A stretch of DNA of 64,000 nucleotides, from positions 324,876 to 388,875 of the forward strand of contig JAJDCB010000030.1 of NCBI GenBank assembly GCA_029261065.1, written 5' to 3'. Source of the DNA: Candidatus Omnitrophota bacterium. Its GTDB lineage: Bacteria > Omnitrophota > Gorgyraeia > Zapsychrales > Zapsychraceae. Below are positions 2,775 to 18,690 of the stretch, one piece after another. Position 1 is the first letter of the stretch. Each line of letters starts with the position of its first letter. Under the pieces are notes generated by a model. The model saw only the letters and a program-made list of their open reading frames with translations. It had not been told where the DNA came from and did no database searches. The position numbers were made by a program, and so were the translations under genes.

Positions 2775-2878
2775 GTGAGAGGTTATTAGTCTCAAGCGTT
2801 TCCTCCATTCAGCGAGGACGACATGGTTATACTAACGCAAAACCTCATTCATATCAAACACATCCACTCAAAATTTTC

Positions 2879-2907
2879 TTGACAGATATTTAAGCTTCAT
2901 CTATAGT
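2879..2907 (+). promoter_or_regulatory. sigma70-type promoter (TTGACA-17 bp-TATAGT) driving the B12 riboswitch leader
   Basis: TTGACA at 2879-2884, 17-nt spacer, TATAGT at 2902-2907. Confidence 0.5.
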
Positions 2908-2929
2908 TAGCGCGTTGTCTTGCTCTTTA

Positions 2930-3130
2930 GATGTCAATTATTCTATTTTGGTCCTCGTAATGTGTCAGAGCAAAGAGGATAAAAGGAAATCCTGTGAAAG
3001 TCAGGAGCAGTCCCGCTACTGTAACTTGTGATATTTTTACAAGAAGTCAGAACACTGCCAAAATAGTTATTCAGTATTTCTCGCGTGAGACGAGGGTTAT
3101 TGAGCATATATTTTGGGAATAAGAAAGAGG
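2930..3130 (+). promoter_or_regulatory. cobalamin (adenosylcobalamin) riboswitch aptamer
   Basis: AAGGAAATCCTGTGAAAGTCAGGAGCAGTCCCGCTACTGTAAC matches the cobalamin-riboswitch core consensus, including a B12-box-like CCCGCtACTGTAA (GGTGAAAnTCC...GAGC.G.CCCGCCACTGTAA in the consensus). A second ACACTGCCA element lies downstream. It sits upstream of a BtuB-like receptor. Confidence 0.6.
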
Positions 3131-3134
3131 GTGC

Positions 3135-3172
3135 CTCCCAATCGATTTTATAATCGATTGGGAGTTTTTTTT
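3135..3172 (+). terminator. intrinsic terminator, expression platform of the riboswitch
   Basis: Perfect 12-bp stem CTCCCAATCGAT / ATCGATTGGGAG followed by T8. Confidence 0.65.
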
Positions 3173-3175
3173 GTG

Positions 3176-3258
3176 CACGTTTTTTTGCACAAAAATAAAC
3201 GAGTTTTTTCTGCGCGTTTTTCAGCACAAAAATAAACGAGTTTTTTTTGCCCGCAAAA
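3176..3258 (+). repeat. two direct copies of a 24-bp imperfect palindrome (GCACAAAAATAAACGAGTTTTTT) between the terminator and the btuB start
   Basis: Seen directly. Each copy contains CGTTTTT-N6-AAAAATAAACG dyad symmetry. Possible operator. Confidence 0.4.
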
Positions 3259-3268
3259 AAAGGATTCA

Positions 3269-5263
3269 ATGAAAAGATATGTCTTAAGTGTTTTAGTAGC
3301 AACAGTTTTTGTTTTAAATGCGTATAGGGTTGAAGCAAAATTAATAACAGAACATGATGAGGTCGTTGTCACAGCAACACGCATTGCTCAATCGAATTAT
3401 AAGATTGCAAGCAACGTCACGGTTCTGACCGCGGAACAAATTCAGGCGTCGCCCGCGCAAAATTTGGCTGACATCTTAGAAGAAGCGGTGGGTGTTTTTG
3501 TAACAGATAATAGTACCTTAAGATCAAAGGTTATCGATATTCGTGGATTCGGTGATACGGCAACACGAAATGTCTTGGTGTTAATTGATGGCAGACGTGT
3601 CAACGCAATTGACATCTCTGCTCCAGACCTTACTCAAATTCCGTTAGAGGCCATTGAGCGTATCGAAATTATTCGAGGAGCTGGTTCTGTTCTCTATGGA
3701 GATAATGCGGTAGGGGGTGTTGTTAACATCATTACAAAACAAGGGGAAGGTGAGTTCTCTGGATATGTAGGGGGCACACATGGAAATTATGATGCGCGTA
3801 GTACGGACATGGAAGTGTCCGGTGAGAAAAACAATGTTTCTTATTATTTTTTCTCTAAGTATAACGATCAGCGCGGTTATCGTAAGAATAGTGATTTGTT
3901 AGCTAAGGATTTTAGTTCACGTTTAGGCTACGACTTTACCGATACTATTAAAACGGATTTAAGTGTTGGTTATCATAAGGATGTCCAAGAGTTACCCGGG
4001 GGCTTAAGTGGTCCAAACTTAACAACATTGGGTCGACGAGGATCAGCATCTAATAATGATACATCTTCAAGCACCGATCGTTATGTAAAATTGACATTGG
4101 ACGTGGAACCCTGGCCAGAAGATGAAACATTAGGGGAGATCGTTGTTGATTTTTATTATCGCAATCGCGATGTTTATACAGAGTTTAACTCTTTTAGTTC
4201 TTTTCATACCAAGCGATCTTTGGACACCAAAGGCCTTAGCGCTAAATACATCTTTGATCGTACCATTTTTGAGAAGGAAGTTAATTTTGTAACAGGTATC
4301 GATTATTATGAACATGAAAATGATATCTTAGGAAGTGGAACAAATCCGGATGATTTAACCATTTCTAAAGATGAATACGGTATTTATGGATTTTTGCAGT
4401 ATGAATTAATGGATGATGTCTTTATTAATGGAGGAACCCGTTATCATAAAGCGGATTATACGTTTAATCAGAGAAACCTAATGACGGAAAGTGATCGTGA
4501 TCCAGATGATTGGGTCTCTATGGTCGGTGCGAAATGGGAATATGCGAAAGGTTCTAGTATTCATATGAATGCGCAACAAACATTTCGTTTTCCAACAACA
4601 GATGAATGGTATAGTTCCTTTTCTGGAACACTTAATACCGCTTTGGATCCTCAATCGGGCATTCAATATGAGGCTGGCATCAAACATAATTTTGATGATA
4701 TCGCTATTGTGAGTGTCACTCCTTATTATATTTTAATGGATGACGAAATATTTTTTGATCCCGTCACATTCGCCAATGGTAATCTAGACAAAACGCGACG
4801 GATTGGTGTTGAGTTTAGTAAAAAGGTGGATTTACTTAGTATTTTTGAGTTAGATATTCTTGATAAACTTGAATACTTTGCTAATTATACATTTCAGAAT
4901 CCAGAGTTTATAAGGGGAGCGAATAAGGGGAAAGATGTCCCATTGGTTCCTCGTCAACAAGCAGGAACGGGACTTATTGTCGGGTTTAATGACCATGTCA
5001 CTGTTTCGTTATTAGGAACTTATATTGGGTCACGCTTTGCTATCAATGACACCGCTAATGCCACGACACCAGCTAAACCTTATTTCATTTTTGATGGAAA
5101 GGTTTCCTACAAGTTAAAACATCTTGAGGTCTTTGGTTCCGTCAACAACATCACTAATGTGTTATATTCTCCATTTGTTGTTAAGTCAGCGTTTAGTTCA
5201 ACCAAAAACTTTTTTCCAGCTCCTGAACGGAATTTTACGGCTGGAGTGAAGTTTAGGTTTTAA
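3269..5263 (+). CDS. btuB: TonB-dependent outer-membrane receptor, BtuB-like (vitamin B12/corrinoid)
   Basis: Signal peptide. TonB box DEVVVTATR. Plug-domain motifs VLVLIDGRRVN and GGVVNIIT are close to E. coli BtuB. C-terminal aromatic residue (RF). Sits downstream of the B12 riboswitch. Confidence 0.75.
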   Translation: MKRYVLSVLVATVFVLNAYRVEAKLITEHDEVVVTATRIAQSNYKIASNVTVLTAEQIQASPAQNLADILEEAVGVFVTDNSTLRSKVIDIRGFGDTATRNVLVLIDGRRVNAIDISAPDLTQIPLEAIERIEIIRGAGSVLYGDNAVGGVVNIITKQGEGEFSGYVGGTHGNYDARSTDMEVSGEKNNVSYYFFSKYNDQRGYRKNSDLLAKDFSSRLGYDFTDTIKTDLSVGYHKDVQELPGGLSGPNLTTLGRRGSASNNDTSSSTDRYVKLTLDVEPWPEDETLGEIVVDFYYRNRDVYTEFNSFSSFHTKRSLDTKGLSAKYIFDRTIFEKEVNFVTGIDYYEHENDILGSGTNPDDLTISKDEYGIYGFLQYELMDDVFINGGTRYHKADYTFNQRNLMTESDRDPDDWVSMVGAKWEYAKGSSIHMNAQQTFRFPTTDEWYSSFSGTLNTALDPQSGIQYEAGIKHNFDDIAIVSVTPYYILMDDEIFFDPVTFANGNLDKTRRIGVEFSKKVDLLSIFELDILDKLEYFANYTFQNPEFIRGANKGKDVPLVPRQQAGTGLIVGFNDHVTVSLLGTYIGSRFAINDTANATTPAKPYFIFDGKVSYKLKHLEVFGSVNNITNVLYSPFVVKSAFSSTKNFFPAPERNFTAGVKFRF

Positions 5264-5274
5264 TTTGAAGGCAC

Positions 5275-5420
5275 GAGCATCGATTGGTGGTCATTAGCAA
5301 GAGCACTGATTAGTGGTCGCTTCAAGACCACCGATTAGTGGTCACTAGCAAGATCACCGATTGGTGGTCGCTAGCAAGAGCACTGATTGGTGTTCGCTTC
5401 AAGACCACCAATTGGTGATC
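5275..5420. repeat. tandem array of about 6 copies of a 26-bp unit (CACYGATTRGTGGTCRCTWSCAAGAS), each with a short palindrome (CACCGATTGGTG)
   Basis: Seen directly, immediately downstream of the btuB stop. Confidence 0.7.
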
Positions 5421-5424
5421 TTTT

Positions 5425-5447
5425 AATACGCATACCCATGGTATAAT
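5425..5447 (+). promoter_or_regulatory. candidate extended -10 promoter (TGGTATAAT)
   Basis: TGnTATAAT at 5438-5446 with a weak -35. Would give a leader of about 170 nt for the following gene. Confidence 0.3.
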
Positions 5448-5625
5448 CAATGCAACCCCATCAGCACACAAACAAAATTTGTATAGAAAAAGGCGATACT
5501 TATTTGGATTTAGATGGCAGGACTGTTTTTACAGAACAATATCTTTTAAAGCGTGGATACTGTTGTGAGAATAACTGCCGACACTGTCCTTATGGGTTTA
5601 GGCTTGATACATTTAAGGAGGCGTC

Positions 5626-6363
5626 ATGAACGCTGTTTTAAATTGGAGTGGGGGGAAAGATTCTTCTTTAACGTTACATTATTTAAATCAATCCAAAGAA
5701 TACGATGTGAAGTATTTATTGACGTCGGTCAGTAGTCAATATCAGCGTATTTCTATGCATGGGGTTCGTATCGAACTTCTTAAAACACAAGCTAAGAGTC
5801 TTGGCATTCCGTTGCGTATTATAGAGATGCCTGAGGAGCCAACCATGACGGAATATGATGCGTTGATGCGGCAGACTTTGGGCGTTTTTAAAAGAGAGGG
5901 GATTCGTCATTCTATTTTTGGTGATATTTTTTTGGAAGACTTAAAGAAATATAGAGAAGATCAATTGGCCAAGGTTGATTTTAAAGGCGTATTTCCTCTA
6001 TGGCTTAAATCAACACAGGAATTGGTCAAAGAGTTTATAGATTTAGGTTTTAAGGCTGTACTCGTGTGTGTGAATGAAAAGTTTTTGGATCAATCTTTTG
6101 TTGGACGGATCATTGATCACAGGTTTGTGAAAGATCTTCCCGCAAACGTTGATCCGTGTGGTGAAAATGGAGAGTTTCATACTTTTGTTTACGACGGCCC
6201 CATTTTTAAGGCACCTATTTCTTTTGAAAAGGGAGAGGTTGTTTATCGCAAATACAAAATGCGTGAATCTGATAATGAAGCTATGGATCAAGTTTGTCCA
6301 AGTTCGAAGGAATTAAAAATCCATACGGGTTTTTGGTATTGTGATTTGTTGCCTAGTGAATAA
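5626..6363 (+). CDS. Dph6/MJ0570-family PP-loop ATP pyrophosphatase (adenine-nucleotide alpha-hydrolase fold)
   Basis: N-terminal SGGKDS PP-loop (NWSGGKDSSL). Length of about 245 aa is typical of the MJ0570/diphthine-ammonia-ligase-like family. Strong RBS AAGGAGG 6 nt upstream. Confidence 0.65.
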   Translation: MNAVLNWSGGKDSSLTLHYLNQSKEYDVKYLLTSVSSQYQRISMHGVRIELLKTQAKSLGIPLRIIEMPEEPTMTEYDALMRQTLGVFKREGIRHSIFGDIFLEDLKKYREDQLAKVDFKGVFPLWLKSTQELVKEFIDLGFKAVLVCVNEKFLDQSFVGRIIDHRFVKDLPANVDPCGENGEFHTFVYDGPIFKAPISFEKGEVVYRKYKMRESDNEAMDQVCPSSKELKIHTGFWYCDLLPSE

Positions 6364-6399
6364 AAGAATGATTCAAAGTGTGTTATTCTAGAATCAACT

Positions 6400-6500
6400 G
6401 GATTCCCGATGTCTCGGGAATGACAAGTGTACTTGAACACTGGATTCCTGATGATTCAGGAATGACAGGACACCTTGTCATTCCCGCAAAAGCGGGAATC
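6400..6500. repeat. three dRS3-like units (GGATTCC-N-GGAATGACA, two direct and one inverted)
   Basis: Seen directly. ATTCCC/ATTCCT-N8-GGGAAT cores. Confidence 0.7.
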
Positions 6501-6535
6501 TACTTTGTTAATTTAATTGTGAAGAAGTAATCAAC

Positions 6536-7450
6536 ATGAAAAAACAAATCGCCGCTATTTTTTTACTTTTTGTCGTCACTGCGCTATTTTTCTCGCCAAA
6601 AAGTTTGTGTCAAACACAACTAGATGTACCGAGTTCTCATCAACGTATTATCTCGTTATCTCCATCGATTACCGAAATTCTTTACGCTCTTGGGGCTGGC
6701 GACCAAGTTGTTGGGGTTACGCGTTTTTGCAATTTTCCTCCTGAGGCTAAAGATAAACCAAAAGTAGGAGGGCTTCTTGATACTAGTTTCGAATTCATTT
6801 ATCGTCTTAAACCGGATCTTGTGTTGTTGCAAAAAGGTGAGATGGGCCAAAAGATGAAATTGGAACAAATGGGTGTGAAAACTGTGGAAACGAAAACGAA
6901 AAGCATTGAGAGCATTTTAGAATCGATTAAGCTGATTGGTGATCTTTTATCGAAGACGTCAGAGGCGAAGGCTATTATTAATCGTATTGAAAAGCGCGTC
7001 TCTTTCATTGAAACACAAACCCAAGGATTAAAGCCTCCTCGTGTTTTAATCACCTTCTCGCGTCATTTTGGGAAAAGAACCATTGAACAAGTTTACATCG
7101 CCGGTCAAGATACGTTTTTTGCAGATCTTTTAAGAGTCTCTGGGGGGAAAAACGCTTATGAGGGAACAGAATTTGTTACAAGTCCGTTAGTCTCCGCGGA
7201 GGGAATATTAAGAATGAATCCCGATATTATTATCGAGATTATGTCTAGTTTAGATGATTTGGGATTAACCCAAGAGGACGTATTAAAAGATTGGGAGAGT
7301 TTAAATCATTTGGATGCTTACAAAAATGAAAAGATATTTATTATCACAGATTCATTCATTGGTATTCCAGGACCCCGGATTGATCAATCTCTAGATGCGT
7401 TTGTACGCATTCTACATTCAGAGGTTGATTGGGAAGGTTTAGATGATTGA
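6536..7450 (+). CDS. btuF: periplasmic substrate-binding protein of a BtuF/HmuT-type (TroA-like) ABC importer
   Basis: Signal peptide. Motif RIISLSPSITEILYALGAGDQVVGVT is typical of cobalamin/heme/siderophore binding proteins. Genomic context with btuB and the riboswitch. Confidence 0.7.
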   Translation: MKKQIAAIFLLFVVTALFFSPKSLCQTQLDVPSSHQRIISLSPSITEILYALGAGDQVVGVTRFCNFPPEAKDKPKVGGLLDTSFEFIYRLKPDLVLLQKGEMGQKMKLEQMGVKTVETKTKSIESILESIKLIGDLLSKTSEAKAIINRIEKRVSFIETQTQGLKPPRVLITFSRHFGKRTIEQVYIAGQDTFFADLLRVSGGKNAYEGTEFVTSPLVSAEGILRMNPDIIIEIMSSLDDLGLTQEDVLKDWESLNHLDAYKNEKIFIITDSFIGIPGPRIDQSLDAFVRILHSEVDWEGLDD

Positions 7451-7460
7451 GGGTTTTAGA

Positions 7461-7642
7461 GCAAGAATAACCAAGTTACAAGAGACAAGGTACAAAAAAG
7501 AAACAAAAATCAATAACCAATTAACCAAACAGTTTGATTATTGGGTTATTGTGAATTGGTTATTTTTTGCCTTTGCGTCTAGAGACGCAGGTCACGGCCA
7601 AAGGCCGTGATATCTTGTACCTTGTAACTTGGTTATTCTTGC
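7461..7642. mobile_element. MITE-like element, copy A (182 bp) with perfect 22-bp terminal inverted repeats GCAAGAATAACCAAGTTACAAG
   Basis: Seen directly. Internal palindromes GCGTCTAGAGACGC and CACGGCCAAAGGCCGTG. Homologous copies at 15320, 41793 and 53507. Confidence 0.75.
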
Positions 7643-7665
7643 TCGTTATTCAAACTAGGATAATT

Positions 7666-8454
7666 ATGACAAATAATGTCGTTGAGTTTAATAATTTTTC
7701 ATTTTCATATGGATCCTCGCCCATTCTTCATCAGATCAATTTAAATGTGAAAGTTGGTCAGTATGTCTCTGTGATTGGCCCTAATGGTGCGGGGAAGTCT
7801 ACGCTTTTAAAGAATATCAATCGGATTGTCAAAGGTGGGACGGGGGAGGTTTTGCTTTTTGGAAAAGAATTGGCGCGTTATAAACAAAAAGACATTGGAC
7901 GATTAGTGGGTTATGTTCAACAGGCCCGTGATCGTATTTATTCTTACCGGGTTTTCGATTTTGTGCTCATGGGACGTTATCCGTATTTAAATCCCCTTTC
8001 TCGTGTGTCCTCTAAAGATAAAGATGTTGTTCATCACATGCTTGATGTTATGGGGATAGCCTCCTTTGCCAATCGTGATATGAACACGTTAAGTGGTGGG
8101 GAGCGGCAAAAGGTTTATTTGGCAGCCGCCCTTGCTCAAGAACCTAAACTGCTCCTCTTAGATGAACCCACGACGTATCTGGATCCAAAATATGAGGTTG
8201 AAATTCAAAAAACCATTTCAAAGACAACTAAAAGATTAGGCATATCCGTCATGCATGTCACGCATGATTTAAATCATATTTATCATTGGAGCCAACATGT
8301 CGTTGCAATGAAAGAAGGGCGCATTTTATTTCAGGGAAAAGCTCAAGATGTTTTAACGGAGTCGCATCTCAAAGATATATTTGATACGGAATTTCATTTG
8401 ATGAAGGATCCTGATTCAGGAAAAATAGTGATTGTTACGAAGGTGGGTGTGTAA
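7666..8454 (+). CDS. btuD: ABC importer ATP-binding protein (BtuD/FhuC-like)
   Basis: Walker A GPNGAGKST, signature LSGGERQ, Walker B LLLLDEPT. Start moved to the ATG at 7666 (RBS AGGA) because the longer ORF starts inside the MITE. Confidence 0.8.
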   Translation: MTNNVVEFNNFSFSYGSSPILHQINLNVKVGQYVSVIGPNGAGKSTLLKNINRIVKGGTGEVLLFGKELARYKQKDIGRLVGYVQQARDRIYSYRVFDFVLMGRYPYLNPLSRVSSKDKDVVHHMLDVMGIASFANRDMNTLSGGERQKVYLAAALAQEPKLLLLDEPTTYLDPKYEVEIQKTISKTTKRLGISVMHVTHDLNHIYHWSQHVVAMKEGRILFQGKAQDVLTESHLKDIFDTEFHLMKDPDSGKIVIVTKVGV

Positions 8455-8455
8455 A

Positions 8456-9436
8456 ATGGCTGTACGCACAAAAATTCTATGTCTTTTTATTATTTCATTA
8501 ATCACACTTATGATAGCCCCTTTGTTAGGGGCGAAGTTGATAGGGTTTAGTGATATTTTTGACGCGTCAAAAAACAATATTGATTCAGATGTGTTTTGGC
8601 AGATGCGTTTGCCGCGTGTATTAGTTGCCTTTATGGCTGGGGCTATATTTGCATTAAGCGGCATGGTCTTTCAGGCGTTGTTTCGCAATCCTTTGGTATC
8701 ACCTTTTACGTTAGGCGTGTCCGCCGGAGCTTCTTTCGGCGCATCCGTTTATATTTGGTTAGGTTTGGCGGTAAGCTTTTTAGGGATATCAGGCATATCA
8801 TTATTTTCTTTTTGTGGTGCGATGTTATCGATTGTTATTGTGTGGTCCTTAGCCAAGATGAAGGGAGGAACATCGGTAGCCACGATGTTGTTAGCCGGGG
8901 TTGCTGTTAGTTTCTTTTTTGGAAGTTTAATCTTATTCGTTCAATATTTAAGTGGCGTGGTGGAAGCCTTTAAAATTTCTCGGTGGTTAATGGGTGGTTT
9001 ATTTGTTTTTGGATATAAACCCGTTTTTGACATTCTACCCTTTGCCTTAATTGGTTTATGTTCTGTTTGGTACTTTACACATGAGTTAAATATTTTTACA
9101 ACAGGTGAAGAATTAGCCATCGCGCGTGGCGTGGATGTTGAGCGCACGGTCAAAATATTATTCTTTCTAATCTCCATCATGATCGGTGGCGTTGTCTCGG
9201 TCTGCGGCCCCATTGCCTTCATCGGCATCATCGCCCCCCACATCTGCCGCCTCATCGTAGGCCCCGATCACCGCTATCTCACGCCCGCCACATTTCTTTT
9301 CGGCGGCCTCTTCCTAACCATCTGCGACGCCCTATCCCGATCCCTCATAGCCCCCGCCGAAATCCCTGTAGGCATCATCACAGCCTTGCTTGGCGGTCCG
9401 TTTTTTTTGTGGTTGTTGGTTAAAAAAAGCTTATGA
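8456..9436 (+). CDS. btuC: ABC importer permease, FecCD/BtuC family
   Basis: About 10 TM helices and FecCD-family conserved blocks. ATG lies immediately after the btuD stop, with an AGGTGGGTG RBS. Confidence 0.75.
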   Translation: MAVRTKILCLFIISLITLMIAPLLGAKLIGFSDIFDASKNNIDSDVFWQMRLPRVLVAFMAGAIFALSGMVFQALFRNPLVSPFTLGVSAGASFGASVYIWLGLAVSFLGISGISLFSFCGAMLSIVIVWSLAKMKGGTSVATMLLAGVAVSFFFGSLILFVQYLSGVVEAFKISRWLMGGLFVFGYKPVFDILPFALIGLCSVWYFTHELNIFTTGEELAIARGVDVERTVKILFFLISIMIGGVVSVCGPIAFIGIIAPHICRLIVGPDHRYLTPATFLFGGLFLTICDALSRSLIAPAEIPVGIITALLGGPFFLWLLVKKSL

Positions 9437-9439
9437 TAT

Positions 9440-9540
9440 TATACCTTAAAGGGTATATTATAAGATAAATTATACCTTAATGGGGATAATTTATATGAAA
9501 TATACTTGAAATTATACCCGATTGGTGTTATATTTATATT
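9440..9540 (+). promoter_or_regulatory. HipB-operator-like palindromes (ATACC-N6-GGTAT and TATACC-N7-GGATAA) upstream of hipB
   Basis: Seen directly. Resembles the TATCC-N8-GGATA HipB operators (established for E. coli HipB). Confidence 0.3.
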
Positions 9541-9543
9541 GTT

Positions 9544-9777
9544 ATGGATGACAAAATACGAATAATAGATGGTGAGCCTATCTCTTTGCAAATAAAGAGT
9601 TTAAGAATGAAAAGTGGCTTAACTCAAGTTGAGTTTGCTAAACGGGTTGGGGTGGGCTTACGGTTTTTACGAGAGCTTGAGCAAGGGAAGACTACGGTAA
9701 GAATGGATAAGCTTGTACAGGTTTTGGATTTCTTAGGCTATCATTTAGATTTAAAGAAAAATGAACCGCAATATTAA
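9544..9777 (+). CDS. hipB: HipB-like XRE-family helix-turn-helix regulator
   Basis: 77-aa HTH protein (LTQVEFAKRVGV). First gene of a three-gene module. Confidence 0.7.
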   Translation: MDDKIRIIDGEPISLQIKSLRMKSGLTQVEFAKRVGVGLRFLRELEQGKTTVRMDKLVQVLDFLGYHLDLKKNEPQY

Positions 9778-9785
9778 AGGAAAAG

Positions 9786-10127
9786 GTGCTTATGAAGGTG
9801 TTAAGAAAAGCAAATGTTTTTTATATTAATGAATTGGCGGGGCATCTTACAGAGACTTCAGAAGGGTACATTTTTCAATACGATTCTAGCTTTTTAAAAA
9901 AGAATATCCCCATCTCTTTGACCTTACCTCCAAGGGAAGAGGCTTATGAATCAAAAGAATTATTTTTGTTTTTTAAAGGTCTTTTACCAGAAGGGTGGTA
10001 TTTGGATATCGTGAGTGCCACACAAAAAGTGGATAGCCAGGATTCATTTGGGGTCTTATTAGCTACGGCGAGTGTTGATACTATAGGTGCGGTTACGGTA
10101 AGGAAGGTCGATATTACAAATGAATGA
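9786..10127 (+). CDS. hipS: HipS-like protein (stand-alone HipA N-terminal subdomain)
   Basis: 113-aa protein between the HTH gene and the kinase gene, overlapping the kinase gene by 8 nt. Matches the HipB-HipS-HipT tripartite arrangement. Confidence 0.55.
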   Translation: MLMKVLRKANVFYINELAGHLTETSEGYIFQYDSSFLKKNIPISLTLPPREEAYESKELFLFFKGLLPEGWYLDIVSATQKVDSQDSFGVLLATASVDTIGAVTVRKVDITNE

Positions 10128-10983
10128 GAAATTTTTAAAAAAGATGTTTAATTCAACACGAACGCCGATAATAAATTTTGGTTTAGCCGATTTATCTCAA
10201 CAAGCGCAAAGATTAGCTGGAAAACTGTCCATCTCGGGTGTTCAGCCAAAATTATCCGTTAAGTTGGATAAAAAAAGTAATGAGTTAATTGTTGTTAATG
10301 ATGGGGGCGAATATATATTAAAACCACAAATCGCGACCTTCACGCATATTCCTGAGAATGAACAGTGTTGTATGGATATAGCAGAGAAGTTGGGTATTGA
10401 TATTCCTCTACATTGTTTGTTACCTTTAAAAGATAAAAGCTTTGCCTATGTCGTTAAAAGATTTGATCGAGATAAGGGTACAAAAATTCATCAAGAAGAT
10501 TTTGCGCAATTGCTTGAGCAAAATGATAAGTATAAAGGGTCTGTAGAGCATATTGGTCGAAAGTTAAAAGATATATCCTCAATTCCAGGTTATGATCTCC
10601 AATTGTTTTTTGAAAGGGTTGTCCTTAATTTTATCCTCGGGAATGGTGATGCCCATCTAAAAAATTATTCTATGTTATATAAAGATGGTAACACTCGATT
10701 AACTCCTGCCTATGATATTGTTTGTTCAAAGTTAGTTATCCCCGAGGAAGAAGACTCGGCCTTAACCATTAATGGTAAAAAGAATAATTTAAAAAGGGAT
10801 GATTTTGAGAAGTTAGCTGAGTATTTCAATATTCCTACGAAGGTTCGGTATGAAAAGTTTGAAGGAAAACTTGATGTAATGAACCAATGTATTGAATCTT
10901 CAAATATGAGTCAGGACAAGCAAAAGCGGTTTATCGAGATTATAAATGAGAGATTAAGACGTTTGGAGTTATTAAAAAGATAG
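10120..10983 (+). CDS. hipT: HipT-like Ser/Thr kinase toxin (HipA C-terminal kinase core)
   Basis: HipA catalytic motif GNGDAHLKNYS. Gly-rich loop SISGVQPKLS. Confidence 0.65.
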   Translation: MNEKFLKKMFNSTRTPIINFGLADLSQQAQRLAGKLSISGVQPKLSVKLDKKSNELIVVNDGGEYILKPQIATFTHIPENEQCCMDIAEKLGIDIPLHCLLPLKDKSFAYVVKRFDRDKGTKIHQEDFAQLLEQNDKYKGSVEHIGRKLKDISSIPGYDLQLFFERVVLNFILGNGDAHLKNYSMLYKDGNTRLTPAYDIVCSKLVIPEEEDSALTINGKKNNLKRDDFEKLAEYFNIPTKVRYEKFEGKLDVMNQCIESSNMSQDKQKRFIEIINERLRRLELLKR

Positions 10984-11090
10984 CAGGCGGTATATTTAAT
11001 AAAAGAAAATAGAATAAAAGAAAGAAATGTGAAGCTTTAGGTTTATCTGTTAATTTGATTTAATAAATTGTCTTTTTTGCCATCTCCACC

Positions 11091-11186
11091 CTCCTCATAG
11101 CCCCCGCCGAAATCCCCGTAGGCATCATTAAAGCTTTACTTGGGGGACCATTCTTCTTGTGGTTACTGGTGAAGAAGCGGTTATAA
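11091..11186 (+). repeat. duplicated copy 2 of the btuC 3' end (about 96 bp, about 85% identical, reading frame partly intact)
   Basis: Seen directly. CTCATAGCCCCCGCCGAAATCCCcGTAGGCATCAT...TTGTGGTT aligns with 9343-9436. Confidence 0.8.
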
Positions 11187-11285
11187 TTTCTCATAGTTAA
11201 TAATAATTGATAGTGTTTGGAAAAAGAGACAAATCATTGTAAACTTGTATTAATTATTCAAATTACATGAAATGGAGGAGAAGCT

Positions 11286-11507
11286 ATGACGACAAAAGAA
11301 ATTGAAAAAAGCGCATTGAAATTAAAGCCTCTTGAAAAAATTAAACTTGTCGATAAGTTATTAATTAGTCTAGATAAGCCCAATCCGGATATTGAACGGT
11401 TATGGCTAAAAGAGGCTGAATCTAGAGTTGATGCCTATGAGAAGGGTGAATTAAAAACTTCATCTTATGAAACAGTTAAAAAAAATACTAAAAGACGTAA
11501 AAAATGA
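11286..11507 (+). CDS. antitoxin of a ParE/RelE-type module (putative addiction-module component)
   Basis: 73 aa, charged C-terminus. Overlaps the downstream toxin gene by 4 nt (ATGA). Confidence 0.5.
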   Translation: MTTKEIEKSALKLKPLEKIKLVDKLLISLDKPNPDIERLWLKEAESRVDAYEKGELKTSSYETVKKNTKRRKK

Positions 11508-11797
11508 AAGTGTATCTTACTCTATTATCCAAAAAAGAATATCAAGAGGCTGTAGCGTATTATGACGAACAGAGTAGAGTGGTGGGAGATAAATTTATAG
11601 CTGAGGTTGAGGAGGCGATTGATTTGATTCGGTATTATGGGTTAGCATGGCCAAAAGTAACAAAGAATTTACGTAGATATGTCTTAAAGCGATTTCCTTA
11701 TATGATGTTGTACAAAATATATAAAGATCGAATCGTTATTTTTGCTATTGCCCATCAACATCGACATCCAAGTTATTACTTAAAGAGAACTTCTTAG
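11504..11797 (+). CDS. ParE/RelE-family toxin (plasmid stabilisation system protein)
   Basis: 97 aa. C-terminal H/R-rich region (AHQHRHPSYYLKR) typical of the ParE/RelE fold. Forms an operon with the upstream small gene. Confidence 0.55.
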   Translation: MKVYLTLLSKKEYQEAVAYYDEQSRVVGDKFIAEVEEAIDLIRYYGLAWPKVTKNLRRYVLKRFPYMMLYKIYKDRIVIFAIAHQHRHPSYYLKRTS

Positions 11798-11884
11798 AAT
11801 TGGCTGACACCTTTATTTTTTTGATTGATGTATGTAATATTTATGTTGCACTTGTAACATGAATGTTACAAGTCGGAAGCTACC

Positions 11885-11952
11885 TTCATCGCGCCCCCCG
11901 AAATCCCCGTAGGTATCGTTACGTCCTTGCTTGGAAAAGATTATAACTTCTG
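11885..11952 (+). repeat. duplicated copy 3 of the btuC 3' end (degenerate), preceded by the hairpin CTTGTAACAT-GAA-TGTTACAAG
   Basis: Seen directly. CCCCCCGAAATCCCCGTAGGTATCGTT...CTTGCTTGG aligns with copies 1 and 2. Confidence 0.7.
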
Positions 11953-12235
11953 AATTTTGACAAGGACATCTTTTATGACATATCTAGCATATAATTGTGT
12001 TATTTAATGATAAAAATATCATAAATTTCTGATTTCTCTTCCTTAATTATCCTACTTAAAATCATTTCATTTAACTATTCTAAGGATTTTAATCTCAAGA
12101 AAGAAAAAAGTCATCAAATAGCACCCTCACCCTATTGTGGTTTAATTTTGAGCTGTTTTAATTCGAAATTAATTATGATTCGGAGGAAAAAAGTAAACTA
12201 TTGAAATCACTAAAGTTAATTATTAAAGGAAAAAA

Positions 12236-12817
12236 ATGAAAAATTTGTTTTTTATTTTATTATTTGGTTTTTTTAGTTTAAGTGTATCCAATGTGTTTGC
12301 TGCGGTTATCGATGACAATGTTGTTTTAAATGCGTTTCGTATTGCCGTTGATGGACACCATTCGATTTTAAAAATGAAAGATGGTGTTGTTGACGTTTTT
12401 AAAGATAAAAGTGGGATTGATAAAGAAAGTTCGTTTAATCTTAATTATAACGCAGCAAGATCCGGAAATTCTTCCGCTTATTATTCTCCAGCAGTAAATA
12501 GCGATATGGTATTAATTTCTCAAACATTTCATGCCAGATCAAATGTTTCTAAGGCTCGAGTAATAGTTTTTATGGAAGATATCGATAGTGTTACTGAAGG
12601 CATAGATATAAAAGTTTATGTTAGTCGAGATGACACTTTTACCTGGGATAAAATTCCAACATTAACAGATGGTGGAGATTACGATCATGGAAAAAGAATG
12701 ATTTCTGGTAATATCACGGCTTTTACAAGTTCTGCTAATAATAAAATGGTTTTTAAGATTGAAACAGCCAAATCCAAAAATATGAAAATTTATGGAGTTG
12801 GTTTTTCTTGGGAATAA
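12236..12817 (+). CDS. secreted hypothetical protein (signal peptide, beta-rich)
   Basis: N-terminal signal peptide ending NVFA-A. RBS AAAGGA. Confidence 0.5.
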   Translation: MKNLFFILLFGFFSLSVSNVFAAVIDDNVVLNAFRIAVDGHHSILKMKDGVVDVFKDKSGIDKESSFNLNYNAARSGNSSAYYSPAVNSDMVLISQTFHARSNVSKARVIVFMEDIDSVTEGIDIKVYVSRDDTFTWDKIPTLTDGGDYDHGKRMISGNITAFTSSANNKMVFKIETAKSKNMKIYGVGFSWE

Positions 12818-12920
12818 TGTTGGTGTGTAAGCCAATTAAAAAGAAAGGAGGCAAGGAAAGATAAAGAAGGATCTTTAAAAAAGAAATCAAATTATAACTA
12901 AACAGAAAGGATTAGCAACA

Positions 12921-13442
12921 ATGAAAAAGTTTTTTATTTCTTTATTAGCTTTAGCGATTATTGGTAATGCTGGAAATCTTTTTGCTGCTGGTGATGCAAG
13001 AGGAGGGGCAGTTATTCCTCATGTACTATATAGGAATGTGTCTGCCTCTGAACGAATGGTACCAGCATATTTTATCTCAAATATTACTGCGGCAACTATA
13101 ACAGTAAGAATTAGGTTTTATGATAAGGCTGGAGCATTGATAACAGATGATGGTGTGGCAACATCTGGAACTATTCGCGGGACAAATGTTTCTAGTTATG
13201 ATGATAATATAACGGGGACTCCTGCTTCTGTTGAATTTGATTTAGGTGCAAATGATACAGGCTTTATTCAACTATTAGGTACTTCAACGACAGATTATGG
13301 CTACGCTGTTATTGATTGGGAACAATTAGACAGTGATGTAACAGTAGGTTTGGTTGCTCATGGATATGTAGATAGTATAATTAGTGCAGACACAACATAT
13401 TGGCGTTATGCTATACCAATTAATGGCGGGCTTCCATTCTAA
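12921..13442 (+). CDS. secreted hypothetical protein (signal peptide), possible distant paralogue of the previous gene
   Basis: Signal peptide ending NLFA-A. Gly/Thr/Asp-rich beta-type composition. Confidence 0.5.
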   Translation: MKKFFISLLALAIIGNAGNLFAAGDARGGAVIPHVLYRNVSASERMVPAYFISNITAATITVRIRFYDKAGALITDDGVATSGTIRGTNVSSYDDNITGTPASVEFDLGANDTGFIQLLGTSTTDYGYAVIDWEQLDSDVTVGLVAHGYVDSIISADTTYWRYAIPINGGLPF

Positions 13443-13468
13443 ATTGTAAAATGGCAAATTGATGAAAC

Positions 13469-13504
13469 AAGGCAAACCTGTTAGGTTTGCCTTGTTTTTT
13501 TATT
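13469..13504 (+). terminator. rho-independent terminator
   Basis: Stem CAAGGCAAACC / GGTTTGCCTTG followed by a T-run of 8 or more. Confidence 0.7.
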
Positions 13505-13633
13505 TTGAATTAATAAAAATGTTATTTTGGTACTTAAATTTTTTTAAAAGTGTTTTTATGTAACATGTTTGTTTTCAACAGCTTTCATTCTTTTGTGATT
13601 CGGTTTTTTCTGTTATCTATTAAAACATTATTC

Positions 13634-13661
13634 TTGACTCTTTGTTCCAGTGATCTATAAT
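13634..13661 (+). promoter_or_regulatory. near-consensus sigma70 promoter (TTGACT-16 bp-TATAAT) at the head of the polysaccharide locus
   Basis: TTGACT at 13634-13639 and TATAAT at 13656-13661. Confidence 0.5.
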
Positions 13662-13730
13662 ACTCATGTTCAATAATTGAACAGTCGTTTCAAGGATAAC
13701 CCCCAAATAAAAATTCGTACCTCGAAACTT

Positions 13731-14303
13731 ATGGATCACGAACACATTGATGAACGAGAGTTTGAGCTAATTAATATTGTTGGCGCCAAACTTGGTTCAA
13801 ATCAAAGAGATTTATCCCGCCACATGGACTTATCTTTGGGTTCCATCAATATGCTTTTGCGCAGACTCGTTGCCAAAGGTTTTATTCGCATTAATCAATT
13901 AGATAAAAGAAAAGTAGAATACATTCTCACACCACAAGGATTTACCGAGAAAATGCGTAAATCTATGAAATATACCCTTAAAACAATTAGTTCTATTGCT
14001 CTTATTAAAGATCGATTGAAAGAAGTGTTGTCGCATCTATACAAAGAAGGGGAGCGAAACTTTATCGTTTATGGAAAATCTGATCTCGCCCTTTTGGTTG
14101 CTCCTGTTTTTAATGATATTTCGTCTGATGATATTAAATTAACTTATATTGATCAATTATCGATAGAACAATTGCAGGGAACGCTTCTTGTTTGTCGTGA
14201 AAATTTTGATGCCTCAGCGGTTGATGGTCGCAAATATGTGCATTTACTTGAAGAAATTGCGAGTGACCCAAAATGGGTACAAACTAATTTAAGTTCGGTG
14301 TAA
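13731..14303 (+). CDS. winged-helix (MarR-like) transcriptional regulator with a C-terminal domain of unknown function
   Basis: wHTH segment LSRHMDLSLGSINMLLRRLVAKGFIRI. ATG at 13731 is preferred over the upstream TTG. Confidence 0.45.
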   Translation: MDHEHIDEREFELINIVGAKLGSNQRDLSRHMDLSLGSINMLLRRLVAKGFIRINQLDKRKVEYILTPQGFTEKMRKSMKYTLKTISSIALIKDRLKEVLSHLYKEGERNFIVYGKSDLALLVAPVFNDISSDDIKLTYIDQLSIEQLQGTLLVCRENFDASAVDGRKYVHLLEEIASDPKWVQTNLSSV

Positions 14304-14318
14304 AGGGAGAGAAACGTT

Positions 14319-15320
14319 ATGCAAAGAAACAAGGTTCTCGTTACAGGTGGAGCCGGTTTTATTGGAAGTCATGTGGTTGATCGACTGTTACAGGATCACC
14401 ATCAGATAACTGTTATTGATAATTTCTCGACGGGAAGACAGGCAAATCTTAATCATCTTAAAAGTAACCCTAATCTAACCATTATTGAAGCCGATATTCG
14501 CGATTTAGCTTCAATTGCGCCTCATTTTCAAAACATCGATATGGTTTTTCATCTAGCGGCATTAGCCGATATCGTACCCTCCATTGTTAATCCAACAGAA
14601 TATTATTCAGCCAATGTTATGGGATCTATGAATGTCCTTGAAGCTTCCCGGCAAGCAGGTGTTAAGCGTTTTGTTTATACCGCATCGTCTTCCTGTTATG
14701 GCATTCCAGATGAAACCGTAGCCACCAAAGAAACTCAAAGTATTGATACGCAATATCCGTATGCATTAACAAAATATATTGGCGAAGAAACCGCTTTTCA
14801 TTGGGCGAACATTTATGATCTACCTCTTGTGTCTTTAAGACTGTTTAATGTTTATGGTCCTCGTTCACGCACATCTGGAACGTATGGGGCTGTGTTTGGT
14901 GTGTTCTTGGCGCAAAAATTAAGTAATAAGCCGTTCACGGTTGTGGGTGATGGTGAACAGACGCGAGATTTTATTTTTGTCACGGATGTTGCTAACGCTT
15001 TTGTGACAGCCGCGTATTCTGAGGTTACCAACGAAGCTTTTAACGTAGGAACAGGAAAACCACAAAGTGTGAATAAGTTGGTGTCGCTTCTTGGTGGAGA
15101 AAAAATTCATATTCCCAAAAGACCTGGGGAACCAGATTGCACGTGGGCCGATATTACAAAGATTAAAAATCAACTGAGTTGGGCGCCGCAGGTTTCGTTT
15201 GAAGAGGGTGTGGGGGAGATTTTAAAAAATATTGATTATTGGAAGGATGCACCGGTTTGGACACCTGAGGCAATTGGAGAAGCTACGGAAGATTGGTTTA
15301 AGTATTTAGGGAAGAGTTAG
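14319..15320 (+). CDS. UDP-glucuronate decarboxylase (UXS/ArnA C-terminal-like) extended SDR
   Basis: VLVTGGAGFIGSHVVDRLL...VIDNFSTGRQANL closely resembles the UXS N-terminus. YxxxK motif present (YALTK). Confidence 0.6.
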   Translation: MQRNKVLVTGGAGFIGSHVVDRLLQDHHQITVIDNFSTGRQANLNHLKSNPNLTIIEADIRDLASIAPHFQNIDMVFHLAALADIVPSIVNPTEYYSANVMGSMNVLEASRQAGVKRFVYTASSSCYGIPDETVATKETQSIDTQYPYALTKYIGEETAFHWANIYDLPLVSLRLFNVYGPRSRTSGTYGAVFGVFLAQKLSNKPFTVVGDGEQTRDFIFVTDVANAFVTAAYSEVTNEAFNVGTGKPQSVNKLVSLLGGEKIHIPKRPGEPDCTWADITKIKNQLSWAPQVSFEEGVGEILKNIDYWKDAPVWTPEAIGEATEDWFKYLGKS

Positions 15321-15536
15321 CAAGAATAACCAAGTTACAAGATACAAGGTATCCCGCCGTCGGCGGGACCCCGCCAACGGCGGGGCAAAAAAGATACAAA
15401 AACCAATTACGGAACAACCAAACAGTTTGGTTATTTAGTTATTGGTGAATTGGTTATTTTTTGCCTTTGCGTCTAGAGACGCAGGTCACGGCCGAAGGCC
15501 GTGATATCTTGTAACTTGTACCTTGGTTATTCTTGC
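15320..15536. mobile_element. MITE-like element, copy B (217 bp), same TIRs plus a GC-rich hairpin insert (CCCGCCGTCGGCGGG / CCCCGCCAACGGCGGGG)
   Basis: Seen directly. Confidence 0.75.
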
Positions 15537-15551
15537 CAGGAGAGATACATC

Positions 15552-17087
15552 ATGAGCACTAACACAACAGAAAATAAAATCAAACCACGAGCCGAGTTAG
15601 CAAAGATCATTGCCCAAGAGAAAAAAAAGGGCAAGAAGGTCGTATTGTGTCATGGAGTTTTTGATTTGGTGCATTTAGGCCATATTCGTCATTTTAAGCA
15701 AGCGAAAAAAGAAGCGGATCTTCTCATTGTTTCGATTACAAAAGACAAACATGTCAAGCGCGGTCCGGGACGCCCTGTCTTTAATGAAATGTTGCGGGCT
15801 GAAACATTAGCGTCATTAGCGATGACCGATTATGTCTCTATTGTTGATTCTCCGACGGCCACAGATTTTATTAAAGCGATTAAACCAGACTTTTATGCCA
15901 AAGGTAACGACTATAAAGCTAAGGATAAAGATGTTACGGGGAAAATCTATGAAGAAGAAGACGCTATTGAATCCGTGGGAGGACGGCTTCTTTTTACGGA
16001 TGATATTACGTTTAGTTCCTCGCATCTCTTAAATAGTTACATTGATGCCTATCCGCCACAAACGACCAAGTTTTTACGAGCTTTAAAGAAGCGTTTTAGT
16101 GCTGATGATGTTATTCATTCTCTTGAAAAAGTAAAAAAGCTTAAAGCCTTGGTCATTGGTGATGCGATTATTGATCAGTATCATTACTGCAATCCTATGG
16201 GAAAATCCTCGAAAGAGCATCTTGTTGTGAATAAATATGAGTCTGAAGAGATGTTTGCTGGAGGAACGCTTGCGACGGCTAACAATGTGGCCAGCATTTG
16301 TGGAGAGGTTGATATGGTGACACTTTTAGGTCGAGAAAATGATCAGAAAGATTTTATAGAGAGTAAATTAGCCAAAAACGTTAATCCTATTTTTTTCTAT
16401 AGAGACGATGCCAATACGATTATTAAAAGGCGCTATGTTAATCAAGGTTCGGGGCGGAAGCTATTTGAAGTGTGTTTTATGAATGATGAAGAGATTAATA
16501 AAGATGTCGAATCTCAAATAAAGAAGTTTCTTCAAGCCTCGCTAAAAAAGTATGATGTGGTGGTTGTCTCAGATTTTGGACATGGTTTGTTAAGTAAGAA
16601 TTTGATTAAGCTCATTTGTCAGAAATCGAAATATTTAGCCGTTAATGTTCAAACAAATAGCGCCAATATTGGTTTTAATCTTGTTACGAAATATCCTTCG
16701 GCTAATTGTGTTTGTATCGATGAAATGGAGTTGCGATATGCAACACATGATAAGTTGGGGGATCTTAGAACGCACGCGAAGAAAGTGTACAGCCAAATGA
16801 ATTGTGATCATATTATTGCGACACGCGGTCCGCATGGATCGATTTGTTATTCAGAAGAAGCTGGATATCACAATACACCCGCTTTTGCCTATCGTGTTGT
16901 TGATGCTATTGGTGCGGGGGATGCCTTTTTTGCATATGTCGGCCCATGTTTTGCAGCAGGGTTACCTCAAGAATTGACAGCTTTTGTCGGTAATGCCGTA
17001 GGTTCCTTGGCTGTTCAAATTGTTTGTAATCGAGAGCCGGTTAATTTTGTTGAATTAAGTAAATTTATAACAAGGTTATTAAAATGA
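15552..17087 (+). CDS. bifunctional sugar-phosphate nucleotidyltransferase (cytidylyltransferase-like, N-terminal) / pfkB-family sugar kinase (C-terminal); HldE/RfaE-like with swapped domain order
   Basis: N-terminal HxGH motif CHGVFDLVHLGH. C-terminal pfkB signature DAIGAGDAF. RBS CAGGAGAG. Adjacent to gmhA. Confidence 0.6.
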   Translation: MSTNTTENKIKPRAELAKIIAQEKKKGKKVVLCHGVFDLVHLGHIRHFKQAKKEADLLIVSITKDKHVKRGPGRPVFNEMLRAETLASLAMTDYVSIVDSPTATDFIKAIKPDFYAKGNDYKAKDKDVTGKIYEEEDAIESVGGRLLFTDDITFSSSHLLNSYIDAYPPQTTKFLRALKKRFSADDVIHSLEKVKKLKALVIGDAIIDQYHYCNPMGKSSKEHLVVNKYESEEMFAGGTLATANNVASICGEVDMVTLLGRENDQKDFIESKLAKNVNPIFFYRDDANTIIKRRYVNQGSGRKLFEVCFMNDEEINKDVESQIKKFLQASLKKYDVVVVSDFGHGLLSKNLIKLICQKSKYLAVNVQTNSANIGFNLVTKYPSANCVCIDEMELRYATHDKLGDLRTHAKKVYSQMNCDHIIATRGPHGSICYSEEAGYHNTPAFAYRVVDAIGAGDAFFAYVGPCFAAGLPQELTAFVGNAVGSLAVQIVCNREPVNFVELSKFITRLLK

Positions 17088-17695
17088 GAGAAGCCATAAG
17101 AGAGAGTCGGTCTAGTTTAAAGAGTTTATTAGATAAAATTGAAGCAAGTGATGTTAGTGGAGGATTGTTATTTGAAGAGGCTGTTGAGTGCGCTGTTAAT
17201 ATTATCTTAGATTGCAAAAAATCGAACGGTAAGCTCATGGTGATCGGCAATGGAGGAAGTGCCGCTATTGCCAGTCATATCGCTACTGACTTTTGGAAAA
17301 ATGCTAAGGTCAAAGCGATGGCTTTTAATGACAGCGTGCACTTAACGTGTGTGAGTAACGATAATGGGTATGAACAAGTCTTTGAATATGGTGTTAACAC
17401 GTTTGGGGAATCAGAAGATGTGTTAATCGCCATTAGTAGTTCGGGACAATCTCCTAATATTTTAAGAGCAGCACAGGCCGCCCGCGATAAAGGAATAAAG
17501 GTCATCACATTATCAGGCTTTAAACAAGACAATATGTTGCGCGCTTTAGGTGATGTGAATTTTTATGTACCAGCATCTCATTATGGGTATGTAGAGGTTA
17601 TTCATCACTCTATTTGTCATAGTTTTATCGATATAACTATTCAACAAAATAATAAAACCAAGAATCAATCATCATTGGAAAGTGAAATTGTATGA
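17084..17695 (+). CDS. gmhA: sedoheptulose-7-phosphate isomerase (SIS domain)
   Basis: GmhA motifs VIGNGGSAAIASH and SSSGQSPNIL. ATGA overlap with the upstream gene. Confidence 0.8.
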   Translation: MREAIRESRSSLKSLLDKIEASDVSGGLLFEEAVECAVNIILDCKKSNGKLMVIGNGGSAAIASHIATDFWKNAKVKAMAFNDSVHLTCVSNDNGYEQVFEYGVNTFGESEDVLIAISSSGQSPNILRAAQAARDKGIKVITLSGFKQDNMLRALGDVNFYVPASHYGYVEVIHHSICHSFIDITIQQNNKTKNQSSLESEIV

Positions 17696-18690
17696 AAGAA
17701 ATAAAGACAGTACTTGTTACAGGGGGTGCCGGTTATGTTGGCGCTGTTTTAGTTCCAAAGTTGTTAAATGAAGGGTATCACGTCAGAGTGCTTGATTTGT
17801 ATTTGTATGGGGCCGATGTTTTTGATGGTATTGCAGATAAAACAAATTTAGAAGAAATAAAAGGGGATATTAGAGATCAAGAGTTGCTTAAAAAATCTTT
17901 GCAAGGATGTGATGCCGTTATTCATTTGGCATGCATTTCTAATGATCCAAGTTTTGAATTAAATCCAGAATTAGGCAAGTCTATTAATCTTGATGCCTTT
18001 AAACCGTTAGTGGATATATCAAAGGCCGCGGGTGTTGAGCGTTTTATTTATGCTTCAAGTTCCAGTGTTTATGGCATCAAAGAAGACCCTGAAGTAAGTG
18101 AAGATTTGCCTCTTGATCCGTTAACGGACTATTCCAAATTTAAAGCAGATTGTGAAACCATTCTTCTTGATGCGGCGAGTGATGATTTTACCGTTAATGT
18201 TTTACGACCAGCAACGGTTTGCGGTTATTCTCCTCGGTTAAGGTTAGATTTAACTGTTAACATTTTAACGAATCACGCGATCAATAAAGGTGAGATTACA
18301 GTTTTCGGAGGAGAGCAGCTTCGTCCTAATGTGCATATTGAAGATATCACCACGTTGTATGTTCAGTTGTTAACCTTGCCACATGAGAAGATTCATAAAA
18401 AAATTTTTAATGCGGGTTATGAAAATCATAAGGTTAAAGATATTGCCAATATGGTTAAGGCAACCTTAACACAAAACGTAGAGGTTAAGACGATTCCCTC
18501 AGATGATCATCGTTCCTATCATGTATCATCGAAAAAAATAAAAGAAGAAATTGGTTTTGAGCCAACGCACACCATCGAAGATGCGATTGCAGATATCAAA
18601 CAAGCTTTTGAAGAGAGTAAGGTTCCAAATCCCATGGAAGATAGCAAGTATTACAACGTCAAACGTATGAAGGAAGTTGATCTTAAATGA
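17692..18690 (+). CDS. NAD-dependent nucleotide-sugar epimerase/dehydratase (extended SDR), possibly a heptose-modifying enzyme
   Basis: TGGAGYVG Rossmann motif and YSKFK (YxxxK). Confidence 0.65.
   Translation: MKEIKTVLVTGGAGYVGAVLVPKLLNEGYHVRVLDLYLYGADVFDGIADKTNLEEIKGDIRDQELLKKSLQGCDAVIHLACISNDPSFELNPELGKSINLDAFKPLVDISKAAGVERFIYASSSSVYGIKEDPEVSEDLPLDPLTDYSKFKADCETILLDAASDDFTVNVLRPATVCGYSPRLRLDLTVNILTNHAINKGEITVFGGEQLRPNVHIEDITTLYVQLLTLPHEKIHKKIFNAGYENHKVKDIANMVKATLTQNVEVKTIPSDDHRSYHVSSKKIKEEIGFEPTHTIEDAIADIKQAFEESKVPNPMEDSKYYNVKRMKEVDLK

Follow-up and report, generated by a model that had tools for sequence, protein, structure and literature searches.

A predicted tripartite HipBST toxin-antitoxin operon between repeated btuC ends in a Candidatus Omnitrophota genome

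Within a stretch of 64,000 nucleotides (nt) of contig JAJDCB010000030.1 from a Candidatus Omnitrophota genome, referred to here as the window, three genes, hipB, hipS, and hipT, very probably form an intact tripartite type II toxin-antitoxin (TA) operon of the HipBST family, as judged from their sequences and from those of their relatives. Every feature that defines this family at the level of sequence is present at the locus. A single HipA of ~440 amino acids (aa) that includes N-subdomain 1 is absent here: N-subdomain 1 and the kinase core are encoded by separate open reading frames (ORFs). The original prediction of a helix-turn-helix (HTH) gene, a 113-aa ORF, and a 287-aa kinase ORF with the motif GNGDAHLKNYS holds for the position of all three, which lie on the + strand (Table 1). 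The module belongs to an already described family, of which it is a real but ordinary member.

Profile searches, which had been proposed together with the prediction, assign each of the three proteins to the family expected. HipB matches HTH_3 (E = 2.4e-11) and scores 74.5 bits, over the cutoff of 71.65, against TIGR03070 couple_hipB, the profile of Y4mF-type antitoxins. HipS matches Couple_hipA, the profile of the HipA N-terminal domain (4.1e-24), and residues 36-239 of HipT match HipA_C (4.7e-49). Among solved structures, HipT is closest to HipT of Legionella pneumophila (HipT(Lp)), residues 24-283 aligning with residues 41-309 (8.8e-48), and next matches HipT of Escherichia coli O127:H6 (1.5e-27); its match to HipA of E. 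coli K-12 is limited to HipA residues 197-336 (7.6e-6). HipS is matched by HI_0666 (1.8e-12), HipS(Lp) (1.2e-11), and O127 HipS (1.8e-9), and also by residues 8-107 of HipA (3e-3), and the top match of HipB is HipB(Lp) (PDB 8ezt, 1.2e-7). These structure hits are enough to establish the fold of all three proteins. From these structure matches it follows that HipS and HipT are jointly collinear with HipA, each being nearest to stand-alone HipBST components. Together with the gene order of related loci described below, this agrees with the predicted split HipBST arrangement rather than a two-gene HipBA.

Collinearity with HipA would also be compatible with hipS and hipT being one hipA broken by a frameshift, that is, a pseudogene of a classical hipBA pair, and so would the finding that the two ORFs lie in different frames, with the hipS stop and the hipT start sharing the 8 nt ATGAATGA (10120-10127). 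A search of 5.8 billion proteins at E<=1e-10 returned ~7,400 HipT homologs; the best 120, mostly from Candidatus Omnitrophota metagenome-assembled genomes (MAGs), all measure 277-305 aa, so that none of them reaches the length of HipA. We further compared genome loci, taking one genome per species, 72 of which encode a HipT relative at 40-78% identity. By tblastn, hipB-hipS-hipT are separate collinear ORFs in 70 of these 72 loci, the other two being cut by contig ends, and the hosts span several phyla (Omnitrophota, Thermodesulfobacteriota, Elusimicrobia, Gastranaerophilales, and Flavobacterium). The hipS/hipT junction itself varies among related loci from a 20-nt overlap to a 77-nt gap when start codons are picked heuristically, and the 8-nt overlap is the commonest form (20 loci). 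In comparisons with seven relatives, nonsynonymous divergence (pN) is 0.09-0.18 and synonymous divergence (pS), which is saturated, 0.66-0.94 in hipB, hipS, and hipT, and the ratio of the corresponding rates (dN/dS) is below 0.1 wherever computable. Purifying selection acts on all three genes, and strongly on both halves of the supposed pseudogene, whose best matches are, moreover, stand-alone HipS and HipT proteins of solved structure. The conserved split, the varied junctions, the lengths of the homologs, and a pN well under pS exclude a frameshifted hipA, to which we assign next to no probability; the early claim that the module is not such a pseudogene is borne out.

Start codons were weighed separately for hipS and hipT. 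The 113-aa ORF of the original prediction exists and begins at GTG 9786, but the gene itself is likely to start at ATG 9792 and to encode 111 aa, since the Shine-Dalgarno-like run AAGGAAAAGG precedes this ATG, the gene call on record (NCBI and Logan) begins there, and most hipS homologs align from the Met encoded at this position. Counted from ATG 9792, the gap between hipB and hipS is 14 nt. For the kinase, the NCBI call begins at Met9 (279 aa) and the Logan call at 10120 (287 aa); members of its family are 286-287 aa long and align from residue 1, which makes 10120 the better hipT start.

The Gly-rich loop of HipT reads G34-K-L-S37-I-S39-G40-V-Q-P-K-L-S. A check of this P-loop for a phosphorylatable serine had been suggested, and S37 and S39 indeed align with S57 and S59, the pair of residues at which O127 HipT autophosphorylates and by which the S-psi-S group is defined (PMC10627512). 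Across 30 aligned family members, the segment SISGVQPKLS is invariant, as are K68 (ILKP), E126, the catalytic Asp D177 together with N182 (GNGDAHLKN), the Mg-binding Asp D199 (PAYD), and R114-F-D116-R117, an RxDR motif of the kind that holds phosphoserine in HipT(Lp). In HipS, LLPE67-G68-W69 aligns with LAPE63-G-W65 of O127 HipS, in which W65 forms a wedge behind the Gly-rich loop and its loss abolishes neutralization (PMC10627512); by analogy, W69 may serve as the wedge here. The 77-aa HipB sequence is devoid of Trp; a C-terminal Trp is likewise missing from HipB of HipBST systems, that of O127 included, unlike HipB of K-12. One could regard the locus as a decaying, non-toxic remnant, for example an inactive kinase with HipB alone kept as a regulator, given that the surrounding islet contains decayed sequence relics. 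However, none of the three ORFs is truncated in comparison with the family, no catalytic or regulatory residue invariant in the 30 homologs is missing, and operators and promoter are intact, and we consider a remnant very improbable.

The window module combines features of both characterized HipBST systems. L. pneumophila HipBST (Lpg2368-Lpg2370; PDB 8ezr, 8ezs, 8ezt, 7vkb, 7wcf) has the same hipB-hipS-hipT order with overlapping ORFs, and its kinase, the best structure match of the window HipT, aligns with it including the C-terminal helices and has the RxDR, catalytic, and Mg motifs in common. Compared with HipT(Lp), the window kinase is 25 aa shorter and its Gly-rich loop starts at residue 36 rather than 53; the loop contains S-I-S with two serines in place of the Legionella S-V-Q with one, the HipS Trp corresponds to an Ile in HipS(Lp), and hipS and hipT overlap by 8 nt instead of 4 nt. 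HipBST of enteropathogenic E. coli O127:H6 (PDB 7ab3, 7ab4, 7ab5) shares the architecture, the S-psi-S loop, and the E-G-W wedge of HipS (PMC10627512). Its HipT alignment covers residues 7-202, about two-thirds of the length, and the window kinase is 48 aa shorter and without the O127 insertions. HI_0666 of Haemophilus influenzae (PDB 7czo), for which the HipS component alone was compared, is the best structure match of HipS, shares the PEGW motif, and belongs to the E. coli-type gammaproteobacterial subclade. HipT bit scores are 166 to Lp and 100 to O127, and those of HipS are 50.9 to HI_0666 and 48.2 to Lp. By score, HipT and HipB thus place the locus nearer to the Legionella-type subclade, which is reported to be widespread outside Gammaproteobacteria (bioRxiv 10.1101/2022.11.26.518041), yet it carries the S-psi-S loop and Trp wedge of the E. 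coli type. HipBA of K-12 has in common with the window module the kinase superfamily, the catalytic motifs, an HTH autorepressor HipB, and several palindromic operators (PMC3920265). In K-12, HipA is one polypeptide of 440 aa and HipB is the antitoxin, whereas in the window N-subdomain 1 is separate and is itself the predicted antitoxin.

Candidate operator palindromes just upstream of hipB had also been proposed, and across the family both their sequence and their location prove to be conserved. The spacer between the btuC stop codon (9436) and the hipB ATG measures 107 nt and holds three copies of a 22-nt unit, termed O1, O2, and O3, which are all variants on TATACC-N6-GGTATA and have start-to-start spacings of 31 and 42 nt. 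Allowing at most one mismatch, TATAC-N8-GTATA occurs twice in the 64 kb, at O1 and O2, both within 105 nt upstream of hipB. Of 68 related loci, 63 have the palindrome TATACC-N6-GGTATA (<=2 mismatches) in the 160 nt before hipB, and 151 matches fall in the ~11.5 kb upstream of hipB compared with 14 in the remaining 364 kb. Its offsets recur across related loci at -135, -104, -73, and -31, the offset of O1 (-104) being found in many of them. A variant of the TATACCCGnnnGGTGATA type stands at -31 in at least 15 related loci, and the right arm of the -31 site is GGTGATA-like in many loci. Even Flavobacterium and Gastranaerophilales, which with 40% HipT identity are the most distant relatives, retain the palindrome. 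In many relatives, the -31 operator keeps a constant distance from the hipB start codon.

The best sigma-70-like promoter within 9300-12300, with 10 of 12 consensus matches, lies across O3, which fills the space between its -35 and -10 hexamers. Nine nucleotides separate the -10 element from the hipB ATG, and hipB has no Shine-Dalgarno sequence; transcription may start near 9541, as the consensus match suggests, and the hipB mRNA may be leaderless or nearly so. HipB of E. coli K-12 binds four TATCC-N8-GGATA operators cooperatively (PMC3920265), and these operators and the sites in the window are alike 18 nt long with the outer TAT...ATA in common. The O127 hipBST promoter is repressed by HipB alone (PMC10627512), and HipB(Lp) shifts its own promoter DNA (bioRxiv 10.1101/2022.11.26.518041). 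Since the palindromes are conserved and HipB proteins of K-12, O127, and Legionella provide precedents, there is strong reason to expect that the predicted HipB binds the three sites upstream of hipB. The result is a testable operator model for HipBST, in which three or four TATACC-N6-GGTATA sites keep a fixed 31-/42-nt spacing and the last lies inside the promoter; we found no comparable HipBST model in the literature consulted.

By analogy with the work on E. coli O127 and Legionella, HipT would be the toxin, HipS its neutralizing partner, and HipB the repressor. As a HipA-type Ser/Thr kinase without N-subdomain 1, free HipT would use the Gly-rich loop to bind ATP. Its substrate would be an essential translation factor, most probably an aminoacyl-tRNA synthetase, and growth would stop once this is phosphorylated. 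HipT would also autophosphorylate at S37 and/or S39. HipS is described as acting on the toxin directly, by keeping the Gly-rich loop from the conformation in which it binds ATP (PMC10627512; PMC9325769); in the window module, it would dock on HipT and push W69 into the pocket behind the loop, which would be held ATP-incompetent. HipB, which in this family does no more than augment neutralization, would not neutralize by itself, but would dimerize, join the HipS-HipT complex, and repress the operon through the three TATACC-N6-GGTATA operators, of which the last is inside the promoter.

Several observations weigh against reading the module as an intact HipBST operon. The identity of HipT to its characterized counterparts is low, at 37% for HipT(Lp) (260 residues aligned) and 39% for O127 HipT (193 residues). 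HipT is also 25-48 aa shorter than the characterized HipTs, mainly because of a shorter N-terminal minidomain: the segment before the Gly-rich loop is 17-20 residues shorter than in HipT(Lp) or O127 HipT. The promoter is a consensus match in AT-rich DNA, in a region with no more such matches than shuffled sequence, and a terminator scan yielded none after hipT. O127 HipT targets TrpS, and the target of Legionella HipT is neither TrpS nor GltX (bioRxiv 10.1101/2022.11.26.518041); as characterized HipTs differ in target, the substrate of the window kinase is not transferable by homology.

The same biochemistry could serve abortive infection or other anti-phage defense, or the stabilization of the islet, rather than a persistence or stress switch; in that case, disturbance of HipS or HipB, whether by a phage or through loss of the locus, would set the kinase free. 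In favor of such a role, the module sits in a small variable islet beside another TA module, HipT relatives at 30-43% identity occur on 102 plasmids, PADLOC reports matches to components A (4e-8) and B (4e-5) of the candidate defense system PDC-M03, and a defensive function has been proposed for Hip kinases (PMC8262856). The PADLOC matches are, however, weak and at superfamily level, and no defense genes were recognized beside the module. We regard a role in defense or islet stabilization as rather unlikely.

To our knowledge, HipBST has been characterized in two organisms only, with kinases that differ in regulation and target. The window locus belongs to an uncharacterized clade of compact kinases (286-287 aa) that is very large and centered on uncultivated Omnitrophota; its regulatory loop and Trp wedge are of the E. 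coli type, and its kinase body is of the Legionella type. It leaves the current understanding of Hip kinases unchanged, and its practical value lies in better annotation. Two useful by-products are the family-wide operator model and the occurrence of cassettes between target-derived direct repeats, to which we now turn.

Table 1 Features of the window and of four related HipBST loci (positions in the related loci, L004 to L070, refer to the respective locus)
Feature	Position	Strand	Remarks
Cobalamin riboswitch	2932-3076		Rfam, 55 bits; gathering threshold 31.5
btuC/fecCD permease gene	8432-9436	+	FecCD profile 1.2e-87
Direct-repeat copy 1 (btuC 3' end)	9333-9436	+	Its stop codon is the left edge of the HipBST cassette
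Operator-like O1	9436-9457		Core TATACC-N6-GGTATA 9440-9457, ATATTATACC-TTAAAG-GGTATA; -104 from hipB ATG
Operator-like O2	9467-9488		Core 9471-9488, 1 mismatch, AAATTATACC-TTAATG-GGGATA; -73 from hipB ATG
Operator-like O3	9509-9530		Core 9513-9530, more degenerate, AAATTATACC-CGATTG-GTGTTA; -31 from hipB ATG
Best sigma-70-like promoter	9506-9534	+	-35 TTGAAA 9506-9511, 17-nt spacer, TG-extended -10 TATATT 9529-9534
hipB	9544-9777	+	77-aa Cro/C1-type HTH protein, predicted autorepressor
hipS	9792-10127	+	111 aa, HipA N-subdomain-1 homolog, predicted antitoxin
hipT	10120-10983	+	287-aa HipA_C core kinase, predicted toxin
btuC 3'-end relic, copy 2	11083-11186	+	86% identity over 72 nt (blastn)
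Second cassette, TA module	11286-11797	+	Unstab_antitox antitoxin 11286-11507, ParE-family toxin 11504-11797
btuC 3'-end relic, copy 3	11883-11940	+	81% over 52 nt; truncated, most decayed of the three
L060	2054-2214 / 3862-4022		161-nt repeat, 97.5%; second copy starts 1 nt after hipT stop
L066	2276-2321 / 3853-3898		46-nt repeat containing a hairpin
L070	2273-2298 / 3868-3893 / 5372-5426		DCD 3'-end relics, one of 26 nt following HipBST and one of 55 nt following the next gene
L004	2075-2163 / 4019-4109		Intact tRNA-Met upstream; relic of tRNA 3' half 155 nt downstream

Upstream of the module lie, in this order, genes for a TonB-dependent receptor, a diphthamide-synthase-like protein, a periplasmic binding protein, an ABC ATPase, and the FecCD/BtuC permease. 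The cobalamin riboswitch was the sole match to Rfam at gathering threshold in positions 1-20000, with none inside the HipBST module. Because this riboswitch precedes genes of the TonB-receptor, BtuF, BtuD, and BtuC types, the FecCD-annotated operon is most likely a B12 uptake system. About 100 nt of the btuC 3' end recur twice downstream, the copies ending at the stop codon with a cassette directly after. HipBST is located between copies 1 and 2, and a ParE/Unstab_antitox pair between copies 2 and 3 (profile matches 8.6e-7 for ParE_toxin and 9.7e-14 for Unstab_antitox; the two genes overlap by 4 nt). Copy 2, which bounds the HipBST cassette on the right and the second cassette on the left, still reads LLIAPAEIPVGIIKALLGGPFFLWLLVKKRL-stop and encodes the C-terminal 31 residues of btuC. 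Between the parE stop and copy 3, we noted a perfect palindrome with 11-nt arms, ACTTGTAACAT-GA-ATGTTACAAGT (11850-11873). Copy 3 is followed by two ORFs with signal-peptide-like N termini (12236-12817, 193 aa, and 12921-13442, 173 aa); they are without a Pfam or PADLOC match and occupy the lowest-GC stretch of the window (29%), and MarR-like, epimerase, hldE, and gmhA genes lie downstream of them.

A syntenic relative (L077), whose BtuC is 71% identical, carries btuF-btuD-btuC, the diphthamide-synthase-like gene, a MarR-like gene, two epimerase genes, hldE, and gmhA. It contains neither hipBST nor parDE, nor the 193-aa or 173-aa ORF. Relative to this conserved synteny, window positions ~9437-13600 are therefore an insert, as compared by gene order with a nearest btuC of 71% identity. 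HipBST is the cassette that adjoins the intact btuC end, and the relics that follow both the HipBST and the ParE modules, together with the absence of the insert from the relative, support the original prediction that it is the first cassette of an accretion site. An assembly artifact is an unlikely source of the repeated btuC ends: the copies have diverged (86% and 81%), and a Logan assembly of run SRR15505515, from which the MAG itself may have been built, matches window 7570-15474 at every base.

Flanking repeats were also surveyed in 57 related HipBST loci, using 700 nt on either side. A direct repeat between the sequence upstream of hipB and that downstream of hipT was detected in 6 of the 57; among the controls, one such repeat turned up in 171 mismatched locus pairs and one in 115 pseudo-cassettes placed in the window. 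The repeats are 23-210 nt long, derive from the target, and differ at each locus; besides those of Table 1, they occur in L020, L048, and L067. The order in L070 is DCD 3' end, HipBST, relic, ATPase, relic, which constitutes a second two-cassette array, and in L004 HipBST stands alone between tRNA-Met and the tRNA relic. Repeats of this kind offer a clue to the way in which small TA cassettes spread and accumulate at the ends of genes. No motif is shared across 68 loci in the 150 nt after the hipT stop, and this lack of a common right-end motif argues against an attC- or dif-like site borne by the cassette. Within the stretch enclosed by the repeats, none of these HipBST units contains a recombinase gene. 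In the phage collection, a single weak HipT match was found (29% identity).

We tentatively suggest, while holding it to be doubtful, that the ~1.6 kb of operators and hipBST could be a self-contained mobile cassette without its own recombinase. It would insert immediately after the stop codons of conserved genes or after tRNAs, each insertion leaving a direct repeat of the target 3' end, and repeated insertion at a single gene end would build small arrays of TA cassettes in Omnitrophota and related genomes. Such integration might be driven by an integrase acting in trans on element-borne target copies, or by homology, through Campbell-type integration of excised circles. Alternatively, the cassettes may be old integrative elements that once brought along a copy of the target 3' end and of which erosion has left the TA genes. 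At least two MAGs, JAHIKK01 (L023 and L032) and CAYING01 (L006 and L069), carry two separate HipBST modules of this clade each, on different contigs.

The window contains a further direct repeat of ~170 nt, without a match in Rfam, in two copies that are ~90% identical (7476-7640 and 15367-15536) and include two GC-rich hairpins, GCGTCTAGAGACGC and GTCACGGCCAAAGGCCGTGA. One copy immediately precedes the ABC ATPase gene and the other hldE, and the Logan contig breaks exactly at both of them.

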